Shown here: piece after piece, positions 7,924-35,232 of the stretch
How positions within the stretch are numbered: the stretch's first letter is position 1
Layout of the letters: each line of letters begins with the position of its first letter
Virus record (IMG/VR): IMGVR_UViG_2974786931_000001
Coordinates: 1 to 64,000 of that record
Reading direction: 5' to 3' (one strand)
Length of the DNA: 64,000 nucleotides
Origin: a virus
Taxonomy: Duplodnaviria > Caudoviricetes
Made by a program: the position numbers and the translations under genes
The notes under the pieces: model-generated
What the model saw: only the letters and a program-made list of their open reading frames with translations
What the model was told of the DNA's origin: nothing
Database searches by the model: none

Positions 7924-8113
7924 ATAAATTACTACCACCAGATTTAATGTTGTCGTAAAATCCGCCATGCACATAGCCAGGCGCAGTTACAGCTTGTTTA
8001 GCTTCACTTGAGCATTCAGGGCAAATAGCCTTGGCACGATCGACAAGTTTTTTAATTCGTTCGAATTCTGCATTGCACTCTTCATTAGTGCATTTATAAT
8101 CATAAATTGGCAT
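7922..8113 (-). CDS. FmdB-like zinc-ribbon protein (T4 39.2-like)
   Basis: MPIYDYKC....C...FE ... CPEC ... GGFY. Confidence 0.8.
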   Translation of the reverse strand: MPIYDYKCTNEECNAEFERIKKLVDRAKAICPECSSEAKQAVTAPGYVHGGFYDNIKSGGSNL

Positions 8114-23256: not shown

Positions 23257-24435
23257 TTATTCTTCTTCAGAATCTAAATCCAATTCATCGAGGTCGCTTT
23301 CAATCTTACCTGCTGAACTTCCAGTGAATATACCTTTTGGAAGACCCATAGTAGATTTGCAATTAATCATATCATCGACTTCAGCATCGATTTCTGGGTT
23401 ACTTGTAATTGCACCTAATTTGTAGCGAGTTTCTATAGCTTCACGGAATGGTCGATGTTTGAACAATGGAGCCCAGAAATCAACGGAGTCAGTAGCTTTA
23501 ATACGCCATGACTTTTCTTCCATAACCATTTCACCGGTTTCATCATCTAAGTAAGCACGATTATACCAGCCGTTTTTAGGTTTCATAACATAACCAAGTT
23601 CACAAGCTAATTCAATCAAACCACTGAACGGGTCAATACCGCCGTCAAAATTAACTGTAATAGGGAACGTAGATTTTTCTTTAACCGTACGTGATTTTTC
23701 AGCTTTCAATGTAAAATCATAACCAGTTAATTCAGTTCCATCTTTAACTTGACGTTTAGAAATAAAGAACACTGTGTTTGCACTGTACAAAATACCAGTA
23801 CCGCCACCCATGATTTCTTTAGGATACATACCACCGATTTCCATTGCTGTATGGTTAATAGCCACGCACGGAATATCTTTAATTGTTAAGAATGGAGTTA
23901 CAATACGGAATAATGATTTCAAGCTCTTAGCACGAGTCATGTCACCAACAACTTTTTCATTCAAAGCATCTTCAGTTTCTTTCTTAGAAGCTGTGTTACC
24001 AATTGAGTCAATAAAGATAACAACTTTTTCACCACGATTGATAGCTTCTAATTGGTTAGTCATATCAACTTTAAGTTGTTCGACCGATTGGATTGGAGTA
24101 TGAACTACGCGGTCTAAATCTACACCCATTGATCGGAAATAAGCTTCAGAAGCACCAAACTCGGAATCATAGAATAAACAAATTGCATCTTTATATTTTT
24201 TCATATAAGCTGCAACCATTGTCAAACCAAACAATGTTTTGAAGTGTTTAGATGGAGCAGCAAAAATTGTTAAACCACTTTGCAAACCAGTATTCAAACC
24301 ACCACCAAACGCAATATTCAACATAGGAATACGTGTTGGCACTTCATCACGATTATTAAACAGTTTCGACTTAGTCAAATCTGCAGTCATTTTAGAAGTA
24401 GAAGCTTTAATTAGGCGGGACTTTAATTCTGACAT
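23257..24435 (-). CDS. uvsX: RecA-like recombinase UvsX
   Basis: APSKHFKT, FYDSEFG, IDSIGN, MGGGTG. Confidence 0.97.
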   Translation of the reverse strand: MSELKSRLIKASTSKMTADLTKSKLFNNRDEVPTRIPMLNIAFGGGLNTGLQSGLTIFAAPSKHFKTLFGLTMVAAYMKKYKDAICLFYDSEFGASEAYFRSMGVDLDRVVHTPIQSVEQLKVDMTNQLEAINRGEKVVIFIDSIGNTASKKETEDALNEKVVGDMTRAKSLKSLFRIVTPFLTIKDIPCVAINHTAMEIGGMYPKEIMGGGTGILYSANTVFFISKRQVKDGTELTGYDFTLKAEKSRTVKEKSTFPITVNFDGGIDPFSGLIELACELGYVMKPKNGWYNRAYLDDETGEMVMEEKSWRIKATDSVDFWAPLFKHRPFREAIETRYKLGAITSNPEIDAEVDDMINCKSTMGLPKGIFTGSSAGKIESDLDELDLDSEEE

Positions 24436-25212: not shown

Positions 25213-25773
25213 TTAAGCTCTATGAGCCCACTTTATGATTCTAGAGATGATTCGTTGTTGAGAATTAGCATCAACAGACTTAATCTTATTAGCGCCGTTA
25301 TGATTAAGAACTTGGACTTGTTCAATATCATGTTCATTTGCAAATGTTTTAAATAACGAAATAATATAATTAAAATCTTCTTTAGATAAAGAAATTAAAT
25401 CATCTTTAAATGAACTATCAATATTATTTCGCATCAAAATCAAAGTCAGAACTTTATGGTTATCAACTAGACGCAAGTAATCAGTTTCATACTGCTCAAA
25501 TTCTTCTAAATCAACAGATTTATTACGCCATAATCCATATACCCAATTACTAATATATCCGCGGTCTAAGATATAAATTTTAGTTGGATCAAGATGTTCG
25601 AGCATTGTTTCAAAACAAGCTACTTCATTTCGTGATTTAATATCAAAACGTCCTGAATCAGTTCGTTTAGGAAAATCAATCAATTCATATTTGTCACTAA
25701 TTTGTAGAATATTACGGACCATTGTAGTTTTACCTGCATTATCAGGTCCGTCGATAAGAATTAGTCGTGCCAT
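25213..25773 (-). CDS. Thymidylate-kinase-like dNMP kinase (modified dCMP kinase candidate)
   Basis: P-loop IDGPDNAGKTT, ILDRGYISNWVY. Confidence 0.8.
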   Translation of the reverse strand: MARLILIDGPDNAGKTTMVRNILQISDKYELIDFPKRTDSGRFDIKSRNEVACFETMLEHLDPTKIYILDRGYISNWVYGLWRNKSVDLEEFEQYETDYLRLVDNHKVLTLILMRNNIDSSFKDDLISLSKEDFNYIISLFKTFANEHDIEQVQVLNHNGANKIKSVDANSQQRIISRIIKWAHRA

Positions 25774-26675
25774 ACAGCCTCTTTAATAACAACATCATCA
25801 TATGTAGGTATATTATACGGCGAATTAATTGAAGCATTAAAGTAAATGAATTCTGCCAAACCTGGATGGAATACTTCTTCTGGGTCTTCTAAGTAAACAA
25901 TTTCTGGCCTACCTTTTAAGACTTGATAATATTCACGTTTAGATAAACTAATTTCTGATATATTGCCAAGAATAGAATACTTTCTTCTATCAAAGGAATT
26001 ATTAGGGTTGGTGATATAAAGCGTATTATTTGTGTCAATACAGTGTTTAAGTACATCTTCAAATTTGTAACACGGATCACTAATTCTAAATGGATGGAAG
26101 ACACCATCCAAAACTATAGGCTCAAGGCCAGCAGCATAGCGCTCGATGACGCTAGGGCGTATTACCTTAGTGGTCACTATGATATTATCTGGTTCAGCAC
26201 CGTAACGTACTAGAGTGTCTTTCTGATTATTATTAAGCACTGTAGTGTATCGACTGAAGTTCACAGATTCAACATCGATTTCGATAAATTCATCGATATA
26301 ACTACGGACGTTATTTGGGTTCATAGTGATATTAAAATTAAAGATTACTGAGTGTTCACCTCTGTACCCTGTTATATCAGTAATGAGTTCATCACAATCA
26401 TAATACTCAACTAATGAATCTACAACATATTGATTTTCTAACCAGAAATGTTTACGAGTTTCATAAGCGTTTTCTTTATACTGCAATGGAACGAAATGGA
26501 ATTCTGGGAATAGTTCAATGCATTCATCAATATCGCTTGCATTCTTAGGAACAGTAATGATATCGCCAGATACTGCACGATTAAGATGTAATTGAAGATT
26601 GCCGTCCTTTAAGACGGCATATTTGTTATCAGCGTATGAACGCATACTGTAAATAGGGACAATGAATTTACTCAT
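25761..26675 (-). CDS. Putative glycosyl (arabinosyl) transferase
   Basis: Occupies the beta-gt position next to the 42-like gene; FHPFRISD..YK and LSK.EYY..L..R...HP...E segments resemble GT-B C-terminal motifs; inference from context. Confidence 0.55.
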   Translation of the reverse strand: MSKFIVPIYSMRSYADNKYAVLKDGNLQLHLNRAVSGDIITVPKNASDIDECIELFPEFHFVPLQYKENAYETRKHFWLENQYVVDSLVEYYDCDELITDITGYRGEHSVIFNFNITMNPNNVRSYIDEFIEIDVESVNFSRYTTVLNNNQKDTLVRYGAEPDNIIVTTKVIRPSVIERYAAGLEPIVLDGVFHPFRISDPCYKFEDVLKHCIDTNNTLYITNPNNSFDRRKYSILGNISEISLSKREYYQVLKGRPEIVYLEDPEEVFHPGLAEFIYFNASINSPYNIPTYDDVVIKEAVWHD

Positions 26676-27376
26676 TCGGCAAAACCTTTAGCATAATCAA
26701 AATCGCGTTCAAACACATGGGCAGAAACCATGGTATGAGTATAATCGCCTAATTCAACACCGCATTCGTTAGCGATATATTCCATCAACTTACCTTGTAG
26801 ATAGAAATCCAGTTGCATAACAATAGCACAGTTTTGCGAACGCATATGGCAATGAGCATACAACTTGCCATCACGAATATAATAAGTCACTGAATCTGTA
26901 CAAGGATATTCTAAACTTTCGTCTGAATCAAGCAAAGCTTGATCTTGTTCTTGGAGAATTTGGAACACAACTCTTCGTGAGTTAGGCTTTTCTTTAAGTT
27001 CTTTAAGTAAGGCTGGCAACTGGGCAACAATTCGAGGTCCATAGAAAGTGTTGAAGTTTGCAGGCAATATGTCACTTTTCGGTTTATTAATGAACTTAGC
27101 AACATTAGGATATTCCTTAAATGCTTCAGCGGCATCTGTGCCACCAGAAATCATAAACTTCCAAAAAGCTTCAGCATAATCATAATCAATACGATTAATG
27201 CGTGGGTCTTCGAATTTATATGAAGACGGTTCAGATACACGAATAATCATTGAGCCAATTTCATTACAACGTCCAATGCGAGAATTAATTACGAAATCTG
27301 GTTTTTCAATAATATTCCAGATAGCTGCTTTAAATGCTTCTTCAAAAGTTTGTTCATTAATATCATAATTTGTCAT
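26672..27376 (-). CDS. 42: Thymidylate-synthase-fold dCMP-modifying enzyme (gp42 position; putative dCMP hydroxylase)
   Basis: YGPR, NSRRVV, YPCT (catalytic Cys), HMRSQN, LD (Asp for cytosine specificity), SAHVFERDF. Confidence 0.85.
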   Translation of the reverse strand: MTNYDINEQTFEEAFKAAIWNIIEKPDFVINSRIGRCNEIGSMIIRVSEPSSYKFEDPRINRIDYDYAEAFWKFMISGGTDAAEAFKEYPNVAKFINKPKSDILPANFNTFYGPRIVAQLPALLKELKEKPNSRRVVFQILQEQDQALLDSDESLEYPCTDSVTYYIRDGKLYAHCHMRSQNCAIVMQLDFYLQGKLMEYIANECGVELGDYTHTMVSAHVFERDFDYAKGFAE

Positions 27377-27656
27377 TACTAATCCTTTGTTGTCTTTTAC
27401 TTTCTTCAAAAATTAATCCAAAGATACATTGTAACTCAATTGGAACTAAAGCTAACTTAGCTTTTTCTAGTTCAAGATTTTCTATCTGAAGGCCATTTTC
27501 TTTTTTAAGATAACCTATGCGATTAGTTATTTTGAATCTTGAATCTAATAATTCTTTTATTTCGTTATCTATATTACTAATGTCAGAACGAAGATTTTCT
27601 AATTGGAGATATGTGCCTTTACCTAGAGTCTTCATTTGTCTAGTCAGATAATTCAT
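27363..27656 (-). CDS. AroQ-type chorismate mutase-like protein
   Basis: LENLRSDISNIDNEIKELLDSRFKITNRIGYLKKENGL.IEN.E.E...IF..IFEES...Q matches the CM_2 pattern. Confidence 0.75.
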   Translation of the reverse strand: MNYLTRQMKTLGKGTYLQLENLRSDISNIDNEIKELLDSRFKITNRIGYLKKENGLQIENLELEKAKLALVPIELQCIFGLIFEESKRQQRISNDKL

Positions 27657-27876
27657 CGGAAGCCTCATATCGTTTTGCTACATTGATATGACGATTCATT
27701 TCTGCCGCAATTATTCCTTTTGCACTATGGACAAAGGCATCAGAATAATAACCTTTCATAGCTGGATTAATGTTAGCTTTAGAGAACAAGCGCGTAAGCG
27801 CCTGCTCTAGTTGTTGTTCTGGTGTTGAAATAGACATGCGGACAAGTTCCTCATTTAATTTATGATTGATTTTCAT
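27640..27876 (-). CDS. Hypothetical protein in modification cluster
   Basis: 78 aa, ATGA-coupled to the U32 gene. Confidence 0.6.
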   Translation of the reverse strand: MKINHKLNEELVRMSISTPEQQLEQALTRLFSKANINPAMKGYYSDAFVHSAKGIIAAEMNRHINVAKRYEASDELSD

Positions 27877-29039
27877 TCTGGGTACCGTAATTCGTCATCT
27901 GATAAAGTGATATCTACAATTTTAATTGAATTTAAAGACATATCATTTTTAGATAATTGTCTCTTATAATATCGCTCACAATATGTACATGACGTACCAC
28001 AGATTTCATTAGCACAATCAAAGTCTGGATGTTTAAACCATCTCTTTTCTAAGAACCCGTCTAATACGGAAGTTTCAATATTAACAGTATGCTTGTAGTT
28101 AGCATCTGATTCAGAGCTATAGATTGTTTCTAATGGTTTCCAGAGTTCTAATAGATTGCCTTTGAAGTATTCAGAAGAATATGCTTCAAGAACTTTCATA
28201 ATGTATTCTGTTGAACCTGTCCGGCCTGAAACTTTAAATTGAGTTATACCAATATCACGGTATAATTTAAGGTCTTGTGGACGAACAAATCTAGTTCTGA
28301 GCCAGTTAAATGGGTCTGTATCACGAGCTTTAATACAATGCTGCATTGGATAACCATTTAATTTCAATGCATCTTCTGATGTTATATCAGTACTATGAAA
28401 GATATAACACGAATCACGATAACTACAATGTGTTGTATAACCTTGGCCAGCATTAGAACAAAATTCATTAACAAGGATTTCAAATACAATTCCATTATCA
28501 TTACAGAATTTTGCTGCTTGCTTCAAGAATGCCACACTTCTGTTTTTGTGAATACCACAACAAACCTTTTTAATATTATATTGGTCATGAAGATATTTGA
28601 TTTGAGTCACTGCATCTACGTGCAATATTGTTGAGACTTCAAATTCTATTTCAGTATTAACTTCACGAACAATTTGCATAATAATTGGGTTAGCTACAGT
28701 AATTCGATATATACCAATAGACCAAAGGTATTGAACATATTTTTGAATAGCTTCTTTCTTCCAATCGTCTAATTCACGTTTAGAACCTGGATTAATGCTG
28801 TTAAACGTATAGTTAAAGCAAATGCCAAGTTCATTACAACGTCTGACATAATTTTCTAATTCTTCGTCCTTAACATCCGGGAGCCTGAAGTCCGGACGAG
28901 CAGCCACAAAGGCCATTGAACGAGTGGAACCGTATACTTCATTGATTAATGAGCCTGGATTTTTATTGTTCAATTCGACAATTTTATCTAGAAGCGCCAA
29001 ATCAAAATTCGTTCCTACCTTAAAAGTAGATTTATGCAT
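27873..29039 (-). CDS. Peptidase U32 family Fe-S protein (putative O2-independent hydroxylase)
   Basis: TIM-barrel pattern FNYTFN, VSTILHV, LVNEFC...C....C...C cysteine set, FKVSGR (KIEGR-like), C-terminal C...C...C..C. Confidence 0.85.
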   Translation of the reverse strand: MHKSTFKVGTNFDLALLDKIVELNNKNPGSLINEVYGSTRSMAFVAARPDFRLPDVKDEELENYVRRCNELGICFNYTFNSINPGSKRELDDWKKEAIQKYVQYLWSIGIYRITVANPIIMQIVREVNTEIEFEVSTILHVDAVTQIKYLHDQYNIKKVCCGIHKNRSVAFLKQAAKFCNDNGIVFEILVNEFCSNAGQGYTTHCSYRDSCYIFHSTDITSEDALKLNGYPMQHCIKARDTDPFNWLRTRFVRPQDLKLYRDIGITQFKVSGRTGSTEYIMKVLEAYSSEYFKGNLLELWKPLETIYSSESDANYKHTVNIETSVLDGFLEKRWFKHPDFDCANEICGTSCTYCERYYKRQLSKNDMSLNSIKIVDITLSDDELRYPE

Positions 29040-29040
29040 T

Positions 29041-29679
29041 TTATAACCTTACGTAATTGGGCCATTTTGGCGAATTAAGTCGAGTATAAAAAGCACTTCG
29101 ACTTAATCCTATAGCCTCATAAGCTAATTTCATCGTGGAATATTCCACACCATTTACTTCAACAGGTGATTTTCTCGAAGCTTTTTCGCCAGTACAAGTC
29201 TTTCGACTTTCAGACATTTTATTTCGCGATGTGTCTGACCATACCTTTCCGATATTTGGTCCTGGCTTTCCTGTAATGGCTTTAGATAATTTAGCTCTTG
29301 TTTCAGGAGACAAACTTACACCGTATCGAGGATTATCTTTTCCGGTGAATCGTCCTTTACGGGACTTTGACATTTTATCACGGGATTCTTTGCTATACGC
29401 AAATGCTGTATTTCCACCTAATTTCAAGTTCAATACATCAGGCCTTTTTAACCAGTCTTCATTAACCAATTCTGCTTCATAATCGTAAGCGTCTTGTTCT
29501 ATGTCAAATGTGGCCAAAATCTCTTTTATGATTTTAGGGTTCTTAGACTTAATATAATCTTTAAGTTTTACTCCAGAACCCATATAATCATCTTCTATAT
29601 TAGAAGTACTATGCTTACCAATATAGAATCTAACATCTTCTTCAGACGTGCACGTTATTTTGTACACGCAATGAATCAT
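29041..29679 (-). mobile_element. Free-standing GIY-YIG (Seg-like) homing endonuclease with NUMOD3 repeats
   Basis: CVYKIT...FYIGKHST..DDYMGSG, E...N catalytic motifs; repeated S.E(S/T)R.K(M/L)S...KG and G..NP.YG modules; C-terminal HTH. Confidence 0.9.
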
Positions 29680-30041
29680 AGATTTGGTTTATATGGAGCG
29701 TGATGTTCGAAAACACCTTTTTGCATTAATGATTTGAACGTATCAGGACGCATAGCTTTGTCATCAATAATCCAATCATATGCAGGTTTGTGAGTCATAA
29801 GTTCATGATATTTAAGTCCGATCTTTTCCAGATTCTTGACTAATCCAGGAACTATTTCAACTGAGATACGACCAGGACCACATGATGTCATACCACGAGC
29901 AGTGTAGAGGACAATTATATGACCTTCATCGTAAAGCTTATTAATCATGGACACCATAACGGTGTCCGGTACGAAGTTTTCATAATCACGATTGCTATTC
30001 CAACGAGTAATCGTGTCATCGATATCAAAACAAAGTTTCAT
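29676..30041 (-). CDS. HAD-superfamily sugar-phosphate phosphatase (capsule-biosynthesis/GmhB-like)
   Basis: CFDIDDTI, YTARG, KP.YD.IIDDKA; TAATG-coupled to upstream gene. Confidence 0.85.
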   Translation of the reverse strand: MKLCFDIDDTITRWNSNRDYENFVPDTVMVSMINKLYDEGHIIVLYTARGMTSCGPGRISVEIVPGLVKNLEKIGLKYHELMTHKPAYDWIIDDKAMRPDTFKSLMQKGVFEHHAPYKPNL

Positions 30042-31714
30042 TAAATTCGTTCCCACTGATGAGTGATGTCACCACCTATAGGTCTATATTGTACACCTGT
30101 TTCTTTGTCAAGCAGAATCCATTTACCTGGATTTTTAGTAATCAGTGTCGCTTGGACGACAGGCCCATCTTTAGAAATCGAACCATCTTCTAACAATCGT
30201 CCCATCTTGTTTAATTGCTTAGAAAGTAAGTACATGCCGTAATAATATGCAGAAACAGCTTTCAATGGGTTATTTTTAAAGTAACCACCTAATGCAATCC
30301 AGATAATTGCTACCCATAGGTGATGATAGTCATCAAACATTTCTAGTTCAGTATAATCTTGGACTAATGAATCGTTTGATACATAAGCACGTTGTCCATT
30401 AATAACTAAACCACCCCAATCTGGCTGAGAATTGAAACTATCATAGCCAGAAATAGCATACAATACTTTTGCTTCATCGTATGTTCTAGGACCATAGATT
30501 TTAGTATTGCCGAAATAACCGCGTGGGTCAATGAATTTAACATCGCCACCGACAGTCATCATTGTATTACTAAAATTAGGGTCGCCATGAATAACTGTGT
30601 ATTCGTCAACAGCAAATTCATGATAATGAGACAAATGATTATAAGCCTGTGTTAAAAGAGTTTTCAAACGTCCTATTTTAACATCGTTAACATATTCAAC
30701 TTTTCCAAATGAATCAATCAATGGCTGAATAGATTTACAACGGTCTAATACTTTAGTAATAATTTCTTTCTTAAAGTCTTCTTTGTACAAATCTTGAGAA
30801 CGAATAGTTTCTTCAGAGAAATTTAAAGAAGCTAAAATATTTTTGATGTATTTGATTTGTGTATCACGCGGAACGTTTTTAAGCCATTCATAAGCAGTGA
30901 CGCCTACAATTCGGTCCATTTCAAAACTATTTGTGTCAACAGCTACGATTTTAGGAACCGAATCTGATTCTACTTTAGCATACCAATCTAATTCATCATG
31001 TTGCAAGGCTTGACCTTGAGCATTCACGGCATGTTTTATAACCGTATCATCTAATATTTCAATAGAATTAAAACTACGGTTCACTTCACCTTTGCCATGA
31101 GCAGCAATCAACTTTGGCTTATCACCTAAATCAATTAAATTCACTAATTCAGAATACTTAAATGATTGACCACGTAAGAATTCTATGAAATCTTTTTCTT
31201 TAGTCCAACGATGGATTTCTTCTTTAGTTGTGCCGAAATCAAATTCCCAATCAGCAACTTGATAGATGCCTACGACATTTCCACCAGTTGAACCTACATT
31301 AGAAATAACTTCGCCGTCAAAATGATATCGACATTCATCGCCTTTAACATAAATGGTATTAGTGTGCCATTTAAAAGCGCCGAAATCAGGAATAATGTCG
31401 CACCAATTCAAAAGAACATTATGACTATGCAAATCTTCAGATAATAAAGCTAATGCATAAGCTGAACCATAGGCTTCATCAACAGTTCTAATAGTGATAT
31501 TTAAATTTTCTTGTTTTGCATAAGCTTCAACAGTAGCAGCAAATTTACTATGAATCACAACAATGATTTCATCTGCACCTAAATCGGTATAGATATCATG
31601 AAGATTTTTAAGAATAGTGTGTTGCTTATAGTTGACTAAAACTTTAGGTAGATGATGGGTCATTGGATACAAACGAGTTGCTAAACCAGCACCTAGAATA
31701 ACAGCCTTTTTCAT
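30041..31714 (-). CDS. Bifunctional sugar nucleotidyltransferase + APH/choline-kinase-like kinase
   Basis: N-terminal ILGAGLATRLYP.T..LPK.L, WCD; C-terminal IHGDPNFSN, FIDPRG, YD.AK. Confidence 0.88.
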   Translation of the reverse strand: MKKAVILGAGLATRLYPMTHHLPKVLVNYKQHTILKNLHDIYTDLGADEIIVVIHSKFAATVEAYAKQENLNITIRTVDEAYGSAYALALLSEDLHSHNVLLNWCDIIPDFGAFKWHTNTIYVKGDECRYHFDGEVISNVGSTGGNVVGIYQVADWEFDFGTTKEEIHRWTKEKDFIEFLRGQSFKYSELVNLIDLGDKPKLIAAHGKGEVNRSFNSIEILDDTVIKHAVNAQGQALQHDELDWYAKVESDSVPKIVAVDTNSFEMDRIVGVTAYEWLKNVPRDTQIKYIKNILASLNFSEETIRSQDLYKEDFKKEIITKVLDRCKSIQPLIDSFGKVEYVNDVKIGRLKTLLTQAYNHLSHYHEFAVDEYTVIHGDPNFSNTMMTVGGDVKFIDPRGYFGNTKIYGPRTYDEAKVLYAISGYDSFNSQPDWGGLVINGQRAYVSNDSLVQDYTELEMFDDYHHLWVAIIWIALGGYFKNNPLKAVSAYYYGMYLLSKQLNKMGRLLEDGSISKDGPVVQATLITKNPGKWILLDKETGVQYRPIGGDITHQWERI

Positions 31715-31743
31715 AATATATTCCTCGTTAAATGGTACATCCA

Positions 31744-31770
31744 TTGTACCATTATTCAATTGAAGCAATT
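31744..31770 (-). promoter_or_regulatory. MotA-dependent middle promoter for the modification cluster
   Basis: ATTGCTTCA (MotA box-like), 12-nt spacer, TACAAT. Confidence 0.65.
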
Positions 31771-31899
31771 AAATTTAGCTTGTAGCCAGAGTATGACCCA
31801 AGCTACAATTAAAGTAGGAATCATTACTGGAAAGATTATAGACCAGTAAATAGTCATAGCAAAGAATACAAACAACAAAATACCTGTTAGATGTTTCAT
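31756..31899 (-). CDS. 47-aa membrane protein not in the ORF track
   Basis: MKHLTGILLFVFFAMTIYWSIIFPVMIPTLIVAWVILWLQAKFNCFN; ATGA-coupled to the isomerase stop. Confidence 0.65.
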   Translation of the reverse strand: MKHLTGILLFVFFAMTIYWSIIFPVMIPTLIVAWVILWLQAKFNCFN

Positions 31900-32525
31900 T
31901 TAGCATCTCTAAGCTGTTGACCAAGTGCACCACCGGGATGGAAGGTCAAAAAGTCATTAGGTGTAAAGCCACGTTCATGAGACAAATTAATAGCAAATGT
32001 GTCAATCAATGCTAAAAGCAAAGTTGTAGACATAGTTGGTGCTAAATTATGCTCATCGATTTCTTTAGCCAAACCTGTGCAGAACGTATAGTCAAACATA
32101 CATTCTATACCTGAATTTAAGCTAGGATTACAGTGTAACAAAATCTGCTTAACATTAGGACGAATTTGTCTGAGATGTTTAGCCACTGCCAACATTTCTT
32201 CTGTCTTACCTGAACGACTAATATTGACCACTACATCATCTGGAGCAATGAAACCAGCATCACCGTGAAGATAATGACCTGTGTTCAGATAAAGGCTTGG
32301 AATACCAAGAGAAGCAAATGTTTCTGAAGCCTTAGCAGCGATATTAGCGTTTTTACCAACACCGGTTATGATTACTCTATTCTTGTAATCAGAGAGTCCA
32401 GGGACTCTCATACACTCTAGGATTTGCTCGTACTTATCTTTATGAACAAACAGATTAGTACTTAATGCATGTAATGCGTGAGCTTGGAGAACTAGGGCAT
32501 CTCGTGCCCTGTCTATTGAATTCAT
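31896..32525 (-). CDS. D-arabinose-5-phosphate isomerase (KdsD/GutQ SIS domain)
   Basis: IITGVGKN..IA.K...TFASLG.PS, HGD.G, ISRSGKT.E, LAPT.ST, HPGGALG; starts 1 nt after gp43 stop. Confidence 0.9.
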   Translation of the reverse strand: MNSIDRARDALVLQAHALHALSTNLFVHKDKYEQILECMRVPGLSDYKNRVIITGVGKNANIAAKASETFASLGIPSLYLNTGHYLHGDAGFIAPDDVVVNISRSGKTEEMLAVAKHLRQIRPNVKQILLHCNPSLNSGIECMFDYTFCTGLAKEIDEHNLAPTMSTTLLLALIDTFAINLSHERGFTPNDFLTFHPGGALGQQLRDAK

Positions 32526-32526
32526 A

Positions 32527-35232
32527 TTACCATCCAAAAATATCATCAAGGGATGCACGTTTTTCATAGTGCAATTCAGCTGCAGTTGTAAAGGATTCAA
32601 GAGGCTTTACAAATGTCTTGTTAAACAAAGATGTGTAGTCAAGATATTTTAATACATCATGTTCTATAGCACTAGGCAGATTAATACCTGATGGCCATGA
32701 GATAACTTTATCGCCAAATGGGTTTTGGTCCATCAATGGTAGAACCATTACCTTTTCACCTTCAACAATAGCTTCAGCACCATCGACATTTTTAGATGCA
32801 CGGTTATAAGTTAACACACCACGAATATGAGATGGGCATTTAAAGGCTGGGAATCCGTTATCATCATATTTTGCAATGTTATTAGCAGAACTAACAGAAG
32901 CAATAGTTGTATAGTCCTGTTGCCTGAATTCAGATTCGAATTCTTTGTAATATTCTTGAAGAGATTGTTCACCTTCTTGAAGCATACGACGAATACATTC
33001 TTTAAGAGCTTTTTGACATGCTTTAGGCGTACTTGATTTTTGTGTTTCAAGACCCATGATTTTCATCTTAGGTTCTGCATAACGTGTTCCTTCCATATCA
33101 TACACATTTAAAGCATAACGTTTCTTAGCAGTCCAGAATCCACCAATACCATCGGAACCAAGAGGTGGACAAGAAATAGCTTCACGGTCCATGAACATTA
33201 AGTGTTCCTTATTGTTCATGTAAGCACCCATTTCACGGAAACCTGCATCAATGGCTGGTTCCATTTTTTCACGAGCAAACTTATCTAAGAAATCGACTAA
33301 GTGGTTCGTATCACGGAATTTATCTTCACCAACTTTTTCAATCAATTTATCAACACAAACGTAAACCGAGTCAGTATCACCTGCGATAACATAATTGAAA
33401 TTATCTGTGCCAATAGTCTTATTCAGATATTCATTAATCTTACGTTCAATCCATTGAATAGCCATTTGGCCGAACAAAGTGATAGCTGATGCGTTACGTA
33501 AATCATAATAACGGAAGTAGATATTGCCAAGTGCACCATACAATGAGTTGATGAGCAACTTACGGTTAATCTGGGCTGTGTTAGAAGCAATTGCTGCACG
33601 GTCTGCTTTATCCAACAGCATACTCAAATCAGCTTCGGTTAGTTCTTTCAATAGTTCTTTAACTTCATCGTCAAAGTCAGCTCGATGGTTGATATCAGTT
33701 TTAAGAGATTTGTCACCAAATGATTTATGGTTCAAAATATCTTTAATAAGTTCCATATTACGCTGTGCTGCAAGCATATAACCTTTGTGTTCTTTACGTT
33801 GATTAAACACTTTAGTAATTTCTACTGGGATGATGCCATCAATATTTTTATCGAACATCCAACCGTTAGGAGAACAACTAAATTCTTCTGAAGGTTTAGG
33901 TGCAGTCATATTAATATATTCTGCAATAGGATGCAGTTTAAATTGTCCTGCAATTGTTTCTGGACTAATACCGACTTGACGAATAATTGATGGATACAAT
34001 GACGTTAAGTCAAAGCTCATAATATATTTGTAAGCAGACGGTTTAGGCTCTTTAACATATGCACCTGGATAGCCTTGTTGCACATGACGTTGTGATTGTG
34101 GAATAACTTTATCTTGAGCTTTCAGTGAGTTAAAGATAATAGCGTCCCAAGTCTTGATAGGACTAAACACTGATTGGATTTGCATTTTAGCATAATAACC
34201 CAATGACATACTCAAGTTCAAGAATTGACGTTTCTGGTCAATTTGTTGTACACGTGCTACGTCGATAATGTTGTATGAAATATAACGTTGATGGTCTAGT
34301 TCACGAAGTTTGTTAATAGGACCATCATACTTCATCTTACCAACACCAAGTTCAGCTTCAGCTACATAATCCAACTTATATGATGCTTGGTTAGTAAAAC
34401 TAAACTTCTTGTACAAATCAAGATAATCTAGTACACTAATACCTAATGGTGTAATAACTTCTTTATCGCCATACATATTTTGAATAATCTTAGAATTCAC
34501 CTTACGATTAGGACTTAAACGTTTAGCAGTGTTTTCGCCGAACACATTCTTCAAACGATTGTACATATACGGGTTATCAAAACCTTCAACGTTCCAACCA
34601 GTTAGAATAACAGGAGTTTGACGTTCCCATAGATTCAAATATTCGAGCAACAATTCTTCTTCTGTATCAAAAGCCATATACTCAATACGGTCTAAGATAT
34701 CTTGCGGAATTTCATCGCCACCTTCAGATTCTGGAAGACCAGCTTTAATTGGACACCATTTAGTGACAGAGCCATAAGGGGAGTTTAATAAATCGAATAC
34801 ATAAAACTTATTAGCTACTGAATCATAGTGTGTTAGGGCGTCAACAGGATATAATGCTTGTGATGCATTAGGAAACTCTGGAGCTGTTACTTCGATGTCA
34901 TAGTTAACAGTTCTGATTTTTGATGCATCGTATTGAATTTCATCAGGATACTTATCAGACAAGTAGGCTAATTTAAAATCATCCATACCCATTGCATCTT
35001 GTCCAATATCTTCCATACGTTTCATCCATTGCTTAGCTTCCCACAATGAATCAAATTTCTTTTTCTGGCAATTAGCGCCGTAGATATCTTTATACTTACT
35101 TTCATTTTGAGTGTGATGGAATAACGTAGGACTATATTTAATTTCTCGACGTTGTTCTTGTCCATTCTTATCAATAAAACGTTCGTGTAAGGTATCACCG
35201 ATTTGTTCAATAGTTAGATAAAATTCTTGCAT
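32527..35232 (-). CDS. 43: Family B DNA polymerase
   Basis: Exo DIE, FDLTSLYPSII, KLLINSLYG, GDTDS, KKRYAL; uninterrupted 901 aa. Confidence 0.98.
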   Translation of the reverse strand: MQEFYLTIEQIGDTLHERFIDKNGQEQRREIKYSPTLFHHTQNESKYKDIYGANCQKKKFDSLWEAKQWMKRMEDIGQDAMGMDDFKLAYLSDKYPDEIQYDASKIRTVNYDIEVTAPEFPNASQALYPVDALTHYDSVANKFYVFDLLNSPYGSVTKWCPIKAGLPESEGGDEIPQDILDRIEYMAFDTEEELLLEYLNLWERQTPVILTGWNVEGFDNPYMYNRLKNVFGENTAKRLSPNRKVNSKIIQNMYGDKEVITPLGISVLDYLDLYKKFSFTNQASYKLDYVAEAELGVGKMKYDGPINKLRELDHQRYISYNIIDVARVQQIDQKRQFLNLSMSLGYYAKMQIQSVFSPIKTWDAIIFNSLKAQDKVIPQSQRHVQQGYPGAYVKEPKPSAYKYIMSFDLTSLYPSIIRQVGISPETIAGQFKLHPIAEYINMTAPKPSEEFSCSPNGWMFDKNIDGIIPVEITKVFNQRKEHKGYMLAAQRNMELIKDILNHKSFGDKSLKTDINHRADFDDEVKELLKELTEADLSMLLDKADRAAIASNTAQINRKLLINSLYGALGNIYFRYYDLRNASAITLFGQMAIQWIERKINEYLNKTIGTDNFNYVIAGDTDSVYVCVDKLIEKVGEDKFRDTNHLVDFLDKFAREKMEPAIDAGFREMGAYMNNKEHLMFMDREAISCPPLGSDGIGGFWTAKKRYALNVYDMEGTRYAEPKMKIMGLETQKSSTPKACQKALKECIRRMLQEGEQSLQEYYKEFESEFRQQDYTTIASVSSANNIAKYDDNGFPAFKCPSHIRGVLTYNRASKNVDGAEAIVEGEKVMVLPLMDQNPFGDKVISWPSGINLPSAIEHDVLKYLDYTSLFNKTFVKPLESFTTAAELHYEKRASLDDIFGW

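Follow-up and report, generated by a model that had tools for sequence, protein, structure and literature searches.

Introduction

In phage RB69 and Acinetobacter phage DLP3 cytosine is replaced by arabinosylated 5-hydroxycytosine (5hoC), and RB69 gp48 or DLP3 gp80, with no more than a dNMP kinase beside it, gives 5-hydroxydeoxycytidine (5hodC) in the DNA of E. coli (Lee et al., NAR 2026, PMC13326640). The enzyme is a homolog of thymidylate synthase (TS) in which L143E, D169N and N177D form the signature of a 5-hydroxy-dCMP (5hodCMP) synthase; it binds FMN, and its product is labelled by 18O2 (PMC13326640). Lee et al. also cite a flavin-bound crystal structure and an O2-dependent reaction in vitro (He et al., Nat Chem Biol 2026); the experiments described in the available text of their article included neither a U32 protein nor truly anoxic production (PMC13326640). 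Here we analyse a cluster of the same kind in a virus of the Caudoviricetes, within a stretch of 64,000 nucleotides (positions 1 to 64,000 of the IMG/VR record IMGVR_UViG_2974786931_000001, hereafter the window), in which the TS homolog is accompanied by a protein of the U32 family and a chorismate mutase (CM). Judging from protein families and gene neighbourhoods, we consider it on balance probable that the U32 protein is an O2-independent, prephenate-dependent C5-hydroxylase of dCMP, which would back up the TS homolog in the window and act alone in phages that lack one.

Pairs of O2-dependent and U32 hydroxylases are exemplified by TrhO and TrhP. The same logic holds for UbiI/H/F with UbiU/V, where an O2-using enzyme and a prephenate-using U32 protein serve one product (PMC10990095). 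Prephenate is the demonstrated oxygen donor of UbiU/V, and U32 proteins have been proposed to be prephenate-dependent hydroxylases, among them RlhA and TrhP, which are linked to O2-independent hydroxylation of RNA; prephenate itself is unstable and, as far as the available text of that source goes, these hydroxylases have no in-vitro assay yet (PMC10990095).

We found no literature linking a phage U32 protein or CM to 5hoC, in a search outside which He et al. 2026 and Mahler et al. 2025 fell. Lee et al. use none of the terms U32, chorismate, prephenate, gp49 and gp50 in their main text (PMC13326640), and their discussion, in its available part, mentions two pathways of pyrimidine hydroxylation in RNA without linking gp50 to either family. 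The paper on the Thanatos phages contains no mention of U32, chorismate, peptidase or anaerobic.

A U32 protein and a chorismate mutase in the arabinosyl-5-hydroxycytosine cluster

The window genes at 25213-32600 constitute an arabinosyl-5hoC cluster with the gene set and order of RB69 gp45-gp55, and Yersinia phages phiR1-RT and TG1 are 92% identical in DNA to this region. Compared with RB69 gp45-gp55 and DLP3 gp76-83, the window adds a CM gene, which RB69 lacks, and a homing endonuclease gene; DLP3-like Acinetobacter phages, unlike the window, have no U32 gene. All genes from UvsX (23257-24435) to 32600 lie on the minus strand. A preliminary description of this DNA, made from the letters alone, had recognised four translationally coupled genes at the place where T4 has gene 42. 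All four open reading frames (ORFs) were found, with overlapping junctions, and the place agrees with the T4 gene order, with UvsX on one side and, in related records, an annotated DNA polymerase on the far side. The four genes are as follows.

27873-29039, minus strand: U32-family protein of 388 residues, homolog of RB69 gp50 (Pfam Peptidase_U32, PF01136)
27640-27876, minus strand: small ORF of 78 residues, conserved helical protein, homolog of RB69 gp49 (45% identity)
27363-27656/27668, minus strand: predicted AroQ-type CM, short form (Pfam CM_2)
26672-27376, minus strand: TS homolog, homolog of RB69 gp48 (PF00303, Thymidylat_synt)

The U32 stop codon and the start of the small ORF share the letters ATGA. 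The CM gene begins at 27656, within the last part of the small ORF, and GAGG precedes its ATG by 6 nt; the TS ATG at 27376 falls 14 nt inside the CM gene, with AAGGA upstream. A further ATGA is common to the TS stop and the start of the glycosyltransferase (GT) gene that follows.

The family assignment of the U32 protein, first made from the letters alone, held in both profile and structure comparisons. The protein scored 43.7 bits with PF01136 (cut-off 22.4), chiefly through residues 96-160, and the RB69 homolog (83% identical to that of the window) and the Thanatos homolog likewise exceeded the cut-off. An AlphaFold 2 model built on 35 homologs (pLDDT 89.9, pTM 0.89) had as its top Foldseek match in the PDB the U32 protein Mk0906 (5d88; E 9.5e-7, TMt 0.66), followed by generic TIM barrels (reductases, aldolases) at TM ~0.35; a sequence search of the PDB with the U32 protein gave no match at E<=1. 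The protein is not UbiU, as it scored 16.5 bits with the NCBIfam UbiU equivalog, for which 440 are required. Out of 1.84 billion cluster representatives the subfamily profile matched 1,670 at E<=1e-3, with 460 of them reaching E<=1e-30, a yield so low that the phage proteins must form a small, distinct and distant branch. Within that branch conservation is high: between the window and the Shewanella phage Thanatos-2, U32 is the best kept protein (77% identity), ahead of TS (72%), the GT (50%) and the kinase (39%). A function as protease or collagenase was rejected, the family name being historical only and the gene context one of nucleotide metabolism.

Four E. coli U32 hydroxylases (RlhA, UbiU, TrhP and UbiV) were taken from the K-12 record and compared with the phage protein by hhalign. 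RlhA (YdcP, the 23S rRNA 5-hydroxycytidine-2501 synthase), likewise a Peptidase_U32 protein, was the closest of the four (Prob 87%, E 3.9e-6, 205 columns); UbiU, TrhP and UbiV gave Prob 4%, 9.6% and 0.7%, single-sequence comparisons that are too weak to use. RlhA and the phage protein have the motif SCYIxHA in common, and a C-x5/6-C pair aligns, phage C205/C211 falling on the CX6C of RlhA. The CX15CX3C of RlhA has no aligned phage cysteine, for which C194 or C235 may substitute. The chemistry linked to RlhA, prephenate-associated hydroxylation of the cytosine ring at C5 (PMC10990095), is that proposed here for the phage enzyme; the two differ in length (653 versus 388 residues), in substrate (rRNA versus, to judge from the gene context, a deoxynucleotide) and in an additional CX4CX3CX2C of the phage protein.

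Ten cysteines are invariant across the 35 U32 homologs, down to 46% identity, and include C342-x4-C347-x3-C351-x2-C354. We infer that they would be enough for one canonical Fe-S cluster and a second metal site. The invariant C-x4-C-x3-C-x2-C is located at the C-terminus (residues 342-354; window 27873-28016), outside the region aligned with RlhA. It could hold another Fe-S cluster or zinc.

The neighbouring CM matches Pfam CM_2 with 38.8 bits, above the cut-off of 27, over profile positions 1-48 of 80, and aligns over its full length (residues 22-96) with the solved chorismate mutase 1ybz of P. furiosus (E 3.9e-6). The 13 phage CMs compared, of 20-48% identity, all have R27, D34, R44, K55, S90 and Q94. 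Five of these residues correspond, in E. coli numbering, to R11 (R27), R28 (R44), K39 (K55), S84 (S90) and Q88 (Q94). Alignment with 1ybz shows an equivalent of E52 as well; D48 has become N and R51 has become L, the stretch being partly deleted in the T4-like group, and phage CMs outside that group retain QP[ED]R. The residues listed in the preliminary description as kept or changed were borne out by the 1ybz and 13-sequence alignments. On this sequence evidence the protein is an AroQ-type chorismate mutase with most of its catalytic residues retained. It is proposed to be a local supplier of prephenate, and in this it would differ from the AroQ mutases with which it shares its full-length alignment and the Arg/Arg/Lys/Ser/Gln set (the CM domain of E. 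coli PheA, 1ybz), since its product would serve as an oxygen donor and not for aromatic amino acids.

The TS homolog and the O2-dependent route

The TS homolog exceeds the PF00303 cut-off of 24.3 with a score of 53.9 bits. It shares 81% identity with RB69 gp48 and, aligned with the canonical ThyA type, carries LEYPC (L143E, C146), RSQN (D169N) and QLDF (N177D). Given this identity and the signature, the gene encodes a 5hodCMP synthase and not a mere activator of C5. The preliminary description had considered the latter part possible for it, in a pathway where the U32 protein was the hydroxylase and prephenate the oxygen donor. Of that pathway, a member of an Fe-S-type U32 family beside an AroQ CM is indeed present, and the TS-fold helper is not supported, because the homologs of RB69 and DLP3 need only a kinase to yield 5hodC (PMC13326640). 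An oxygen atom derived from O2, named at the outset as a finding that would speak against the pathway, is what 18O2 labelling revealed for the TS route (PMC13326640). It follows that the U32 protein is not the sole hydroxylase here, as the TS homolog by itself makes 5-hydroxy-dCMP with oxygen from O2.

The rest of the cluster comprises the following genes.

31896-32600, minus strand: SIS-domain arabinose-5-phosphate isomerase, homolog of RB69 gp55 (SIS 46.8 bits; 71% identity)
30041-31768, minus strand: bifunctional nucleotidyltransferase and kinase, RB69 gp52:53 / AfhE-like (NTP_transferase 37.2 bits; 61% identity to RB69; role according to Lee et al., PMC13326640)
29676-30056, minus strand: HAD phosphatase of UDP-arabinose synthesis, RB69 gp51 / AfhF-like (69% identity to RB69 gp51; role according to Lee et al., PMC13326640)
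29041-29679, minus strand: Seg-like GIY-YIG/NUMOD3 homing endonuclease, between the HAD phosphatase and U32 genes (NUMOD3 56.4 bits)
25761-26675, minus strand: GT of 304 residues, homolog of RB69 gp46:47 / DLP3 gp79 (64% identity to RB69 gp46:47 DNA by tblastn)
25213-25773, minus strand: thymidylate-kinase-like nucleotide kinase, homolog of RB69 gp45 (P-loop matches to dTMP and CMP kinases)

That RB69 gp46:47 and DLP3 gp79 are the first arabinosyltransferases is a proposal of Lee et al. (PMC13326640).

U32 modules of viruses without a TS homolog

An alignment-based scan of IMG/VR yielded 46 U32 loci, 14 of them T4-like and 32 from other viruses, and whole-record searches were carried out on 31 records of the latter group. 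The U32 proteins of the 32 loci are 40-54% identical to that of the window. PF00303 was found in two of the 31 records. Twelve of the records have a completeness of 90% or more; just one of these twelve has a match, and its TS is of the canonical ThyA type, with L143, D169 and N177 kept. As a control, the same search detected the td gene as well as the 5hoC-type TS in the genome to which the window belongs. Profile scans of the 32 loci recovered the GT family of the cluster (GT304) in 23 and its kinase family in 24, the two being fused in four; the nucleotidyltransferase-kinase was found in 16, the isomerase in 9, an NTP pyrophosphatase of the dUTPase_2 type in 5 and TS in 1. These modules without a TS homolog argue for a second, O2-independent route.

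The order in a complete phage of 48.9 kb is pyrophosphatase, kinase, GT, U32, second GT, DNA polymerase III alpha and ThyX; the complete phages of ~49 kb have neither isomerase nor nucleotidyltransferase-kinase, though U32, GT, kinase and pyrophosphatase are present. The T4 scheme consists of a dCTPase, a dCMP-modifying enzyme, a kinase and a glycosyltransferase. The small phages would parallel it, with U32 in the position of the TS homolog.

CM_2 was matched in 11 of the 31 records (41-89 bits), in ten of them no more than 1 kb from U32, and in three arrangements: as a small gene just downstream of U32, or fused to 3-deoxy-D-arabino-heptulosonate 7-phosphate (DAHP) synthase either just upstream or just downstream. 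Such a pairing that recurs in unrelated phages and in varied gene orders is the signature to be expected of a prephenate-using U32 hydroxylase.

Several of these loci deserve mention for their own sake. A protein with DAHP_synth_1 (PF00793, 84.8 bits) and a C-terminal CM_2 (86.1 bits) adjoins U32 at L032:6335-7390; similar fusions are found upstream of U32 in L030, L033 and L034 and downstream at L038:9067-10185. The first committed enzyme of the shikimate pathway and the prephenate-forming enzyme are here combined in one phage protein. GT-kinase fusions of 550-605 residues (L043:3357-5009, also L028, L035 and L049) occur in viral genomes of 128-191 kb that have U32 and no TS. In a complete viral genome of 230 kb (L024:3482-5381, the same as L052) a ThyA-type TS (243 bits) stands directly upstream of a GT of the GT304 family; kinase, nucleotidyltransferase-kinase and U32 genes come next, in that order. 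In a distant T4-like fragment (L021:81-3263) U32 comes directly after gp32- and UvsX-like genes and is followed by a gene for a UvsW-like helicase; the 8.9 kb available contain no GT.

Distribution among isolated phages and bacterial assemblies

Among 50,697 phage records surveyed by tblastn, U32 was found in 224, of which 220 show at least 60% identity; the four weak matches below that value include cyanophage P-RSM1. The U32-bearing phages among the matches listed infect Enterobacterales and Shewanella. CM was detectable in 46 records and the TS homolog in 372, including 57 from Acinetobacter and 25 from Rhizobium/Agrobacterium phages. Whole-record Pfam searches of selected phages revealed neither U32 nor CM in Acinetobacter phage Konradin, Rhizobium phage RL38J1 and E. 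coli phage JS98, of which JS98 and Konradin carry the full arabinosyl-5hoC cluster. In this sample U32 is confined to phages of facultative anaerobes, JS98 being the exception within the E. coli phages. Co-occurrence of U32 and CM across the T4-like phages, which the preliminary description had named as a check, is partial: the two are paired in the window, in TG1 and in Thanatos-2, and RB69 has U32 without any CM_2 match in its whole record. In Thanatos-2 the cluster is rearranged so that U32 and CM lie away from TS, yet they remain adjacent, with an overlap of 4 nt.

No relatives turned up when bacterial genomes were scanned with the U32 protein alone; an alignment-based scan of one bacterial genome per species gave 12 U32 loci. 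Their source assemblies include Erysipelotrichales, Oscillospiraceae, Gastranaerophilaceae, two Romboutsia, Tannerella, Phocaeicola faecalis and Angelakisella, most of the 12 being from strict anaerobes. A GT context was seen in five of the loci, three of these with CM. Another cassette is present in six (L061 and L065-L069; in part also in L062), where GP88 (PF17338), a fusion of guanylate kinase with an S-adenosylmethionine (SAM) methyltransferase, and a 270-residue protein without an assigned family precede U32; its position is ~3 kb upstream of U32, which is at 8001, and in L067 a PD-(D/E)XK nuclease also lies upstream. This cassette might make an O-methylated hydroxypyrimidine nucleotide.

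A proposed second route to 5-hydroxy-dCMP

The explanation we favour is that the window's cluster contains two routes to the hydroxylated base. In the first, demonstrated in relatives, the TS homolog would hydroxylate C5 of dCMP with flavin and O2. In the second, the U32 Fe-S protein would hydroxylate the same carbon, most likely also on dCMP, without O2 and with oxygen from prephenate, as in UbiU/UbiV and as thought for RlhA and TrhP. The adjacent CM would make the unstable prephenate on the spot from host chorismate, and the 78-residue protein could be an accessory of this route. Phages of this kind are expected to destroy dCTP, and with an O2-requiring hydroxylase alone they could thus not multiply where the host lacks oxygen. 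The U32 module would serve in this situation, as UbiUV does for UbiIHF and TrhP for TrhO. In the many phages without a TS homolog, some of them from assemblies of strict anaerobes, where U32 occurs with the same GT and nucleotide kinase and often with CM or a DAHP synthase-CM fusion, it would probably be the sole hydroxylase. Compared with the Ubi and Trh pairs, the phage would be distinguished by having both enzymes side by side in one operon, by a TS-fold flavoenzyme as the O2-dependent partner and by a CM of its own; no second subunit resembling UbiT or UbiV was recognised.

A number of observations weigh against this explanation. As to the proteins, only two of the four canonical Fe-S cysteines can be aligned between the phage U32 protein and RlhA; TIGR01791 covers the window CM over positions 1-82 of 83 with 40.8 bits, below the equivalog cut-off of 66.95, and the T4-like phage CMs are ~13 residues shorter, with the R51 segment lost. 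As to distribution, the TS-only route is sufficient aerobically (PMC13326640); the modification can do without U32, given that JS98 and other U32-less phages carry the cluster; and the Mosigvirus-like loci RB69, L002 and L016, which have U32 and the small ORF without CM, would have to use host prephenate. The distribution of U32 over hosts also follows phage phylogeny, which confounds the correlation. Near-duplicates are frequent among the 32 non-T4 loci, so that the independent lineages number perhaps 6-8; nine of the loci show no GT, several of them being cut near U32, and the full-length locus L023 has no GT and an unrelated context. A genome without TS may still contain another, unrecognised hydroxylase. 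Finally, the only appearance of RB69 gp50 in the available text of Lee et al. is in Table 1, where it is labelled 'sugar or heterocycle reductase' (PMC13326640).

Other functions considered for the U32 protein

The U32 protein could act on the polymer, hydroxylating cytosines of phage DNA after replication with prephenate supplied by CM, either to finish an incomplete modification or, in phages without a TS homolog, as the main route. The characterised U32 enzymes of nucleic acids do act on polymers (PMC10990095), RlhA, the closest E. coli relative, being one of them, and Lee et al., in the available text, did not distinguish whether the first arabinosylation takes place on the mononucleotide or on DNA (PMC13326640). 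We nevertheless regard this as unlikely: the dedicated kinases beside U32, in 24 of the 32 non-T4 loci and as the guanylate kinase fusion of the bacterial cassette, point to a monophosphate product, five loci add the NTP pyrophosphatase, and the phage protein lacks the long C-terminal half of RlhA.

A second alternative takes up the table label of Lee et al. and makes the protein a redox enzyme that processes a sugar or heterocycle in the arabinose branch and hydroxylates no base. A GenBank note for phage ChristianSchoenbein reads 'enzyme involved in UDP-arabinose biosynthesis', sugar-activation genes accompany U32 in 16 of the 32 loci, and the Foldseek matches after 5d88 are TIM-barrel reductases and aldolases. 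Those later matches are generic, however, and small complete phages have U32 without the isomerase or the nucleotidyltransferase-kinase. Conversely, the Acinetobacter phages and JS98 have arabinose activation without U32, and the related DLP3 is reported to make arabinosyl-5hoC (PMC13326640). The recurrent adjacency of CM and of DAHP synthase-CM would be left unexplained, and we hold this function to be quite improbable.

Still less probable, in our estimate, is that U32 and CM serve a host target under low oxygen, namely ho5U34 of tRNA, ho5C2501 of rRNA or anaerobic ubiquinone. All four characterised U32 enzymes have targets of this sort (PMC10990095), and the T4-like fragment L021 has no GT in view. 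The phage gene, however, is inside a DNA-modification operon with overlapping genes, adjacency to GT and kinase recurs in unrelated lineages, and RlhA, TrhP and UbiUV are already encoded by the host.

The initial proposal in its strict form, with U32 as the hydroxylase of the pathway and a TS fold that only activates C5 through its Cys-C6 adduct, explains why the genes are adjacent and translationally coupled but is hardly tenable, as the TS homolog with a kinase makes 5hodC with 18O from O2 in the product (PMC13326640) and U32-less phages carry the same TS homolog and arabinosylation cluster. A U32 protein that requires a TS partner was also rejected, since U32 modules without TS exist.

Relation to other phage pathways and significance

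The phage carboxymethylcytosine pathway that uses the enzyme CmoX is likewise a modification of cytosine at C5, and the paper describing it mentions prephenate 8 times in its available text; CmoX is a carboxymethyltransferase with another product and not a U32 protein (PMC12783734). These mentions suggest that metabolites of the shikimate pathway already feed phage DNA chemistry.

Extending the O2-independent U32 hydroxylase favoured above to viruses at large, one may propose that U32 Fe-S enzymes are a widespread viral route to 5-hydroxypyrimidine deoxynucleotides, with prephenate as donor and with phage CM or DAHP synthase-CM redirecting the host shikimate pathway. They would replace the TS-type hydroxylase in phages of anaerobes, provide a handle for glycosylation and, in the kinase-methyltransferase cassette of bacteria or prophages, perhaps for O-methylation, and allow fully cytosine-substituted genomes of enteric T4-like phages, that of the window among them, to replicate in the anoxic gut. 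Taken jointly, all this is tentative, possible rather than probable.

What would be new is a viral prephenate-dependent U32 hydroxylase with a new class of substrate, not the gene labels, as GenBank records already call some of the U32 and CM genes 'peptidase' and 'putative chorismate mutase'. A deoxynucleotide or DNA would be the first such substrate for these hydroxylases, and soluble dCMP could enable an in-vitro assay. The enzyme would explain how enteric phages keep full cytosine replacement without oxygen, and viruses would carry shikimate-pathway genes for the sake of an oxygen donor instead of amino acids. Phages of anaerobes would possess a family of TS-independent modules of DNA hypermodification, with a bearing on evasion of restriction and CRISPR and on which phages to choose for therapy where oxygen is absent. 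JS98 and other U32-less relatives should then fail, or lose their modification, when oxygen is strictly excluded, and deletion of U32 should cause a conditional defect.

The 78-residue protein and the homing endonuclease

The small ORF is a real conserved gene, as its product is 45-46% identical to RB69 gp49 (E 7e-20). The protein has the motif YYxDAFxHS..G.I..E..RHIN..KR and matched no Pfam or NCBIfam family above cut-off, the best result of an Atlas search (0.77) being below threshold; that it is a degenerate CM was rejected (hhalign Prob 0.5%). It may be an accessory of the U32 enzyme. Among the T4-like genera examined, small ORF and CM are both present in the window, in TG1 and in two other loci; RB69-like phages have only the former and Winklervirus-type phages only the latter. 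The CM of the Winklervirus type has 114 residues (Erwinia phage Virsaitis27, L001:4736-5080), and its start, INHTMNELV, resembles that of the 78-residue ORF, INHKLNEELV, a likeness which suggests that a deletion fused the small-ORF start to this CM.

The homing endonuclease gene at 29041-29679 is an insertion outside the pathway. It is polymorphic among close relatives, since in the TG1-like locus L006 the site is empty and the HAD gene abuts U32.

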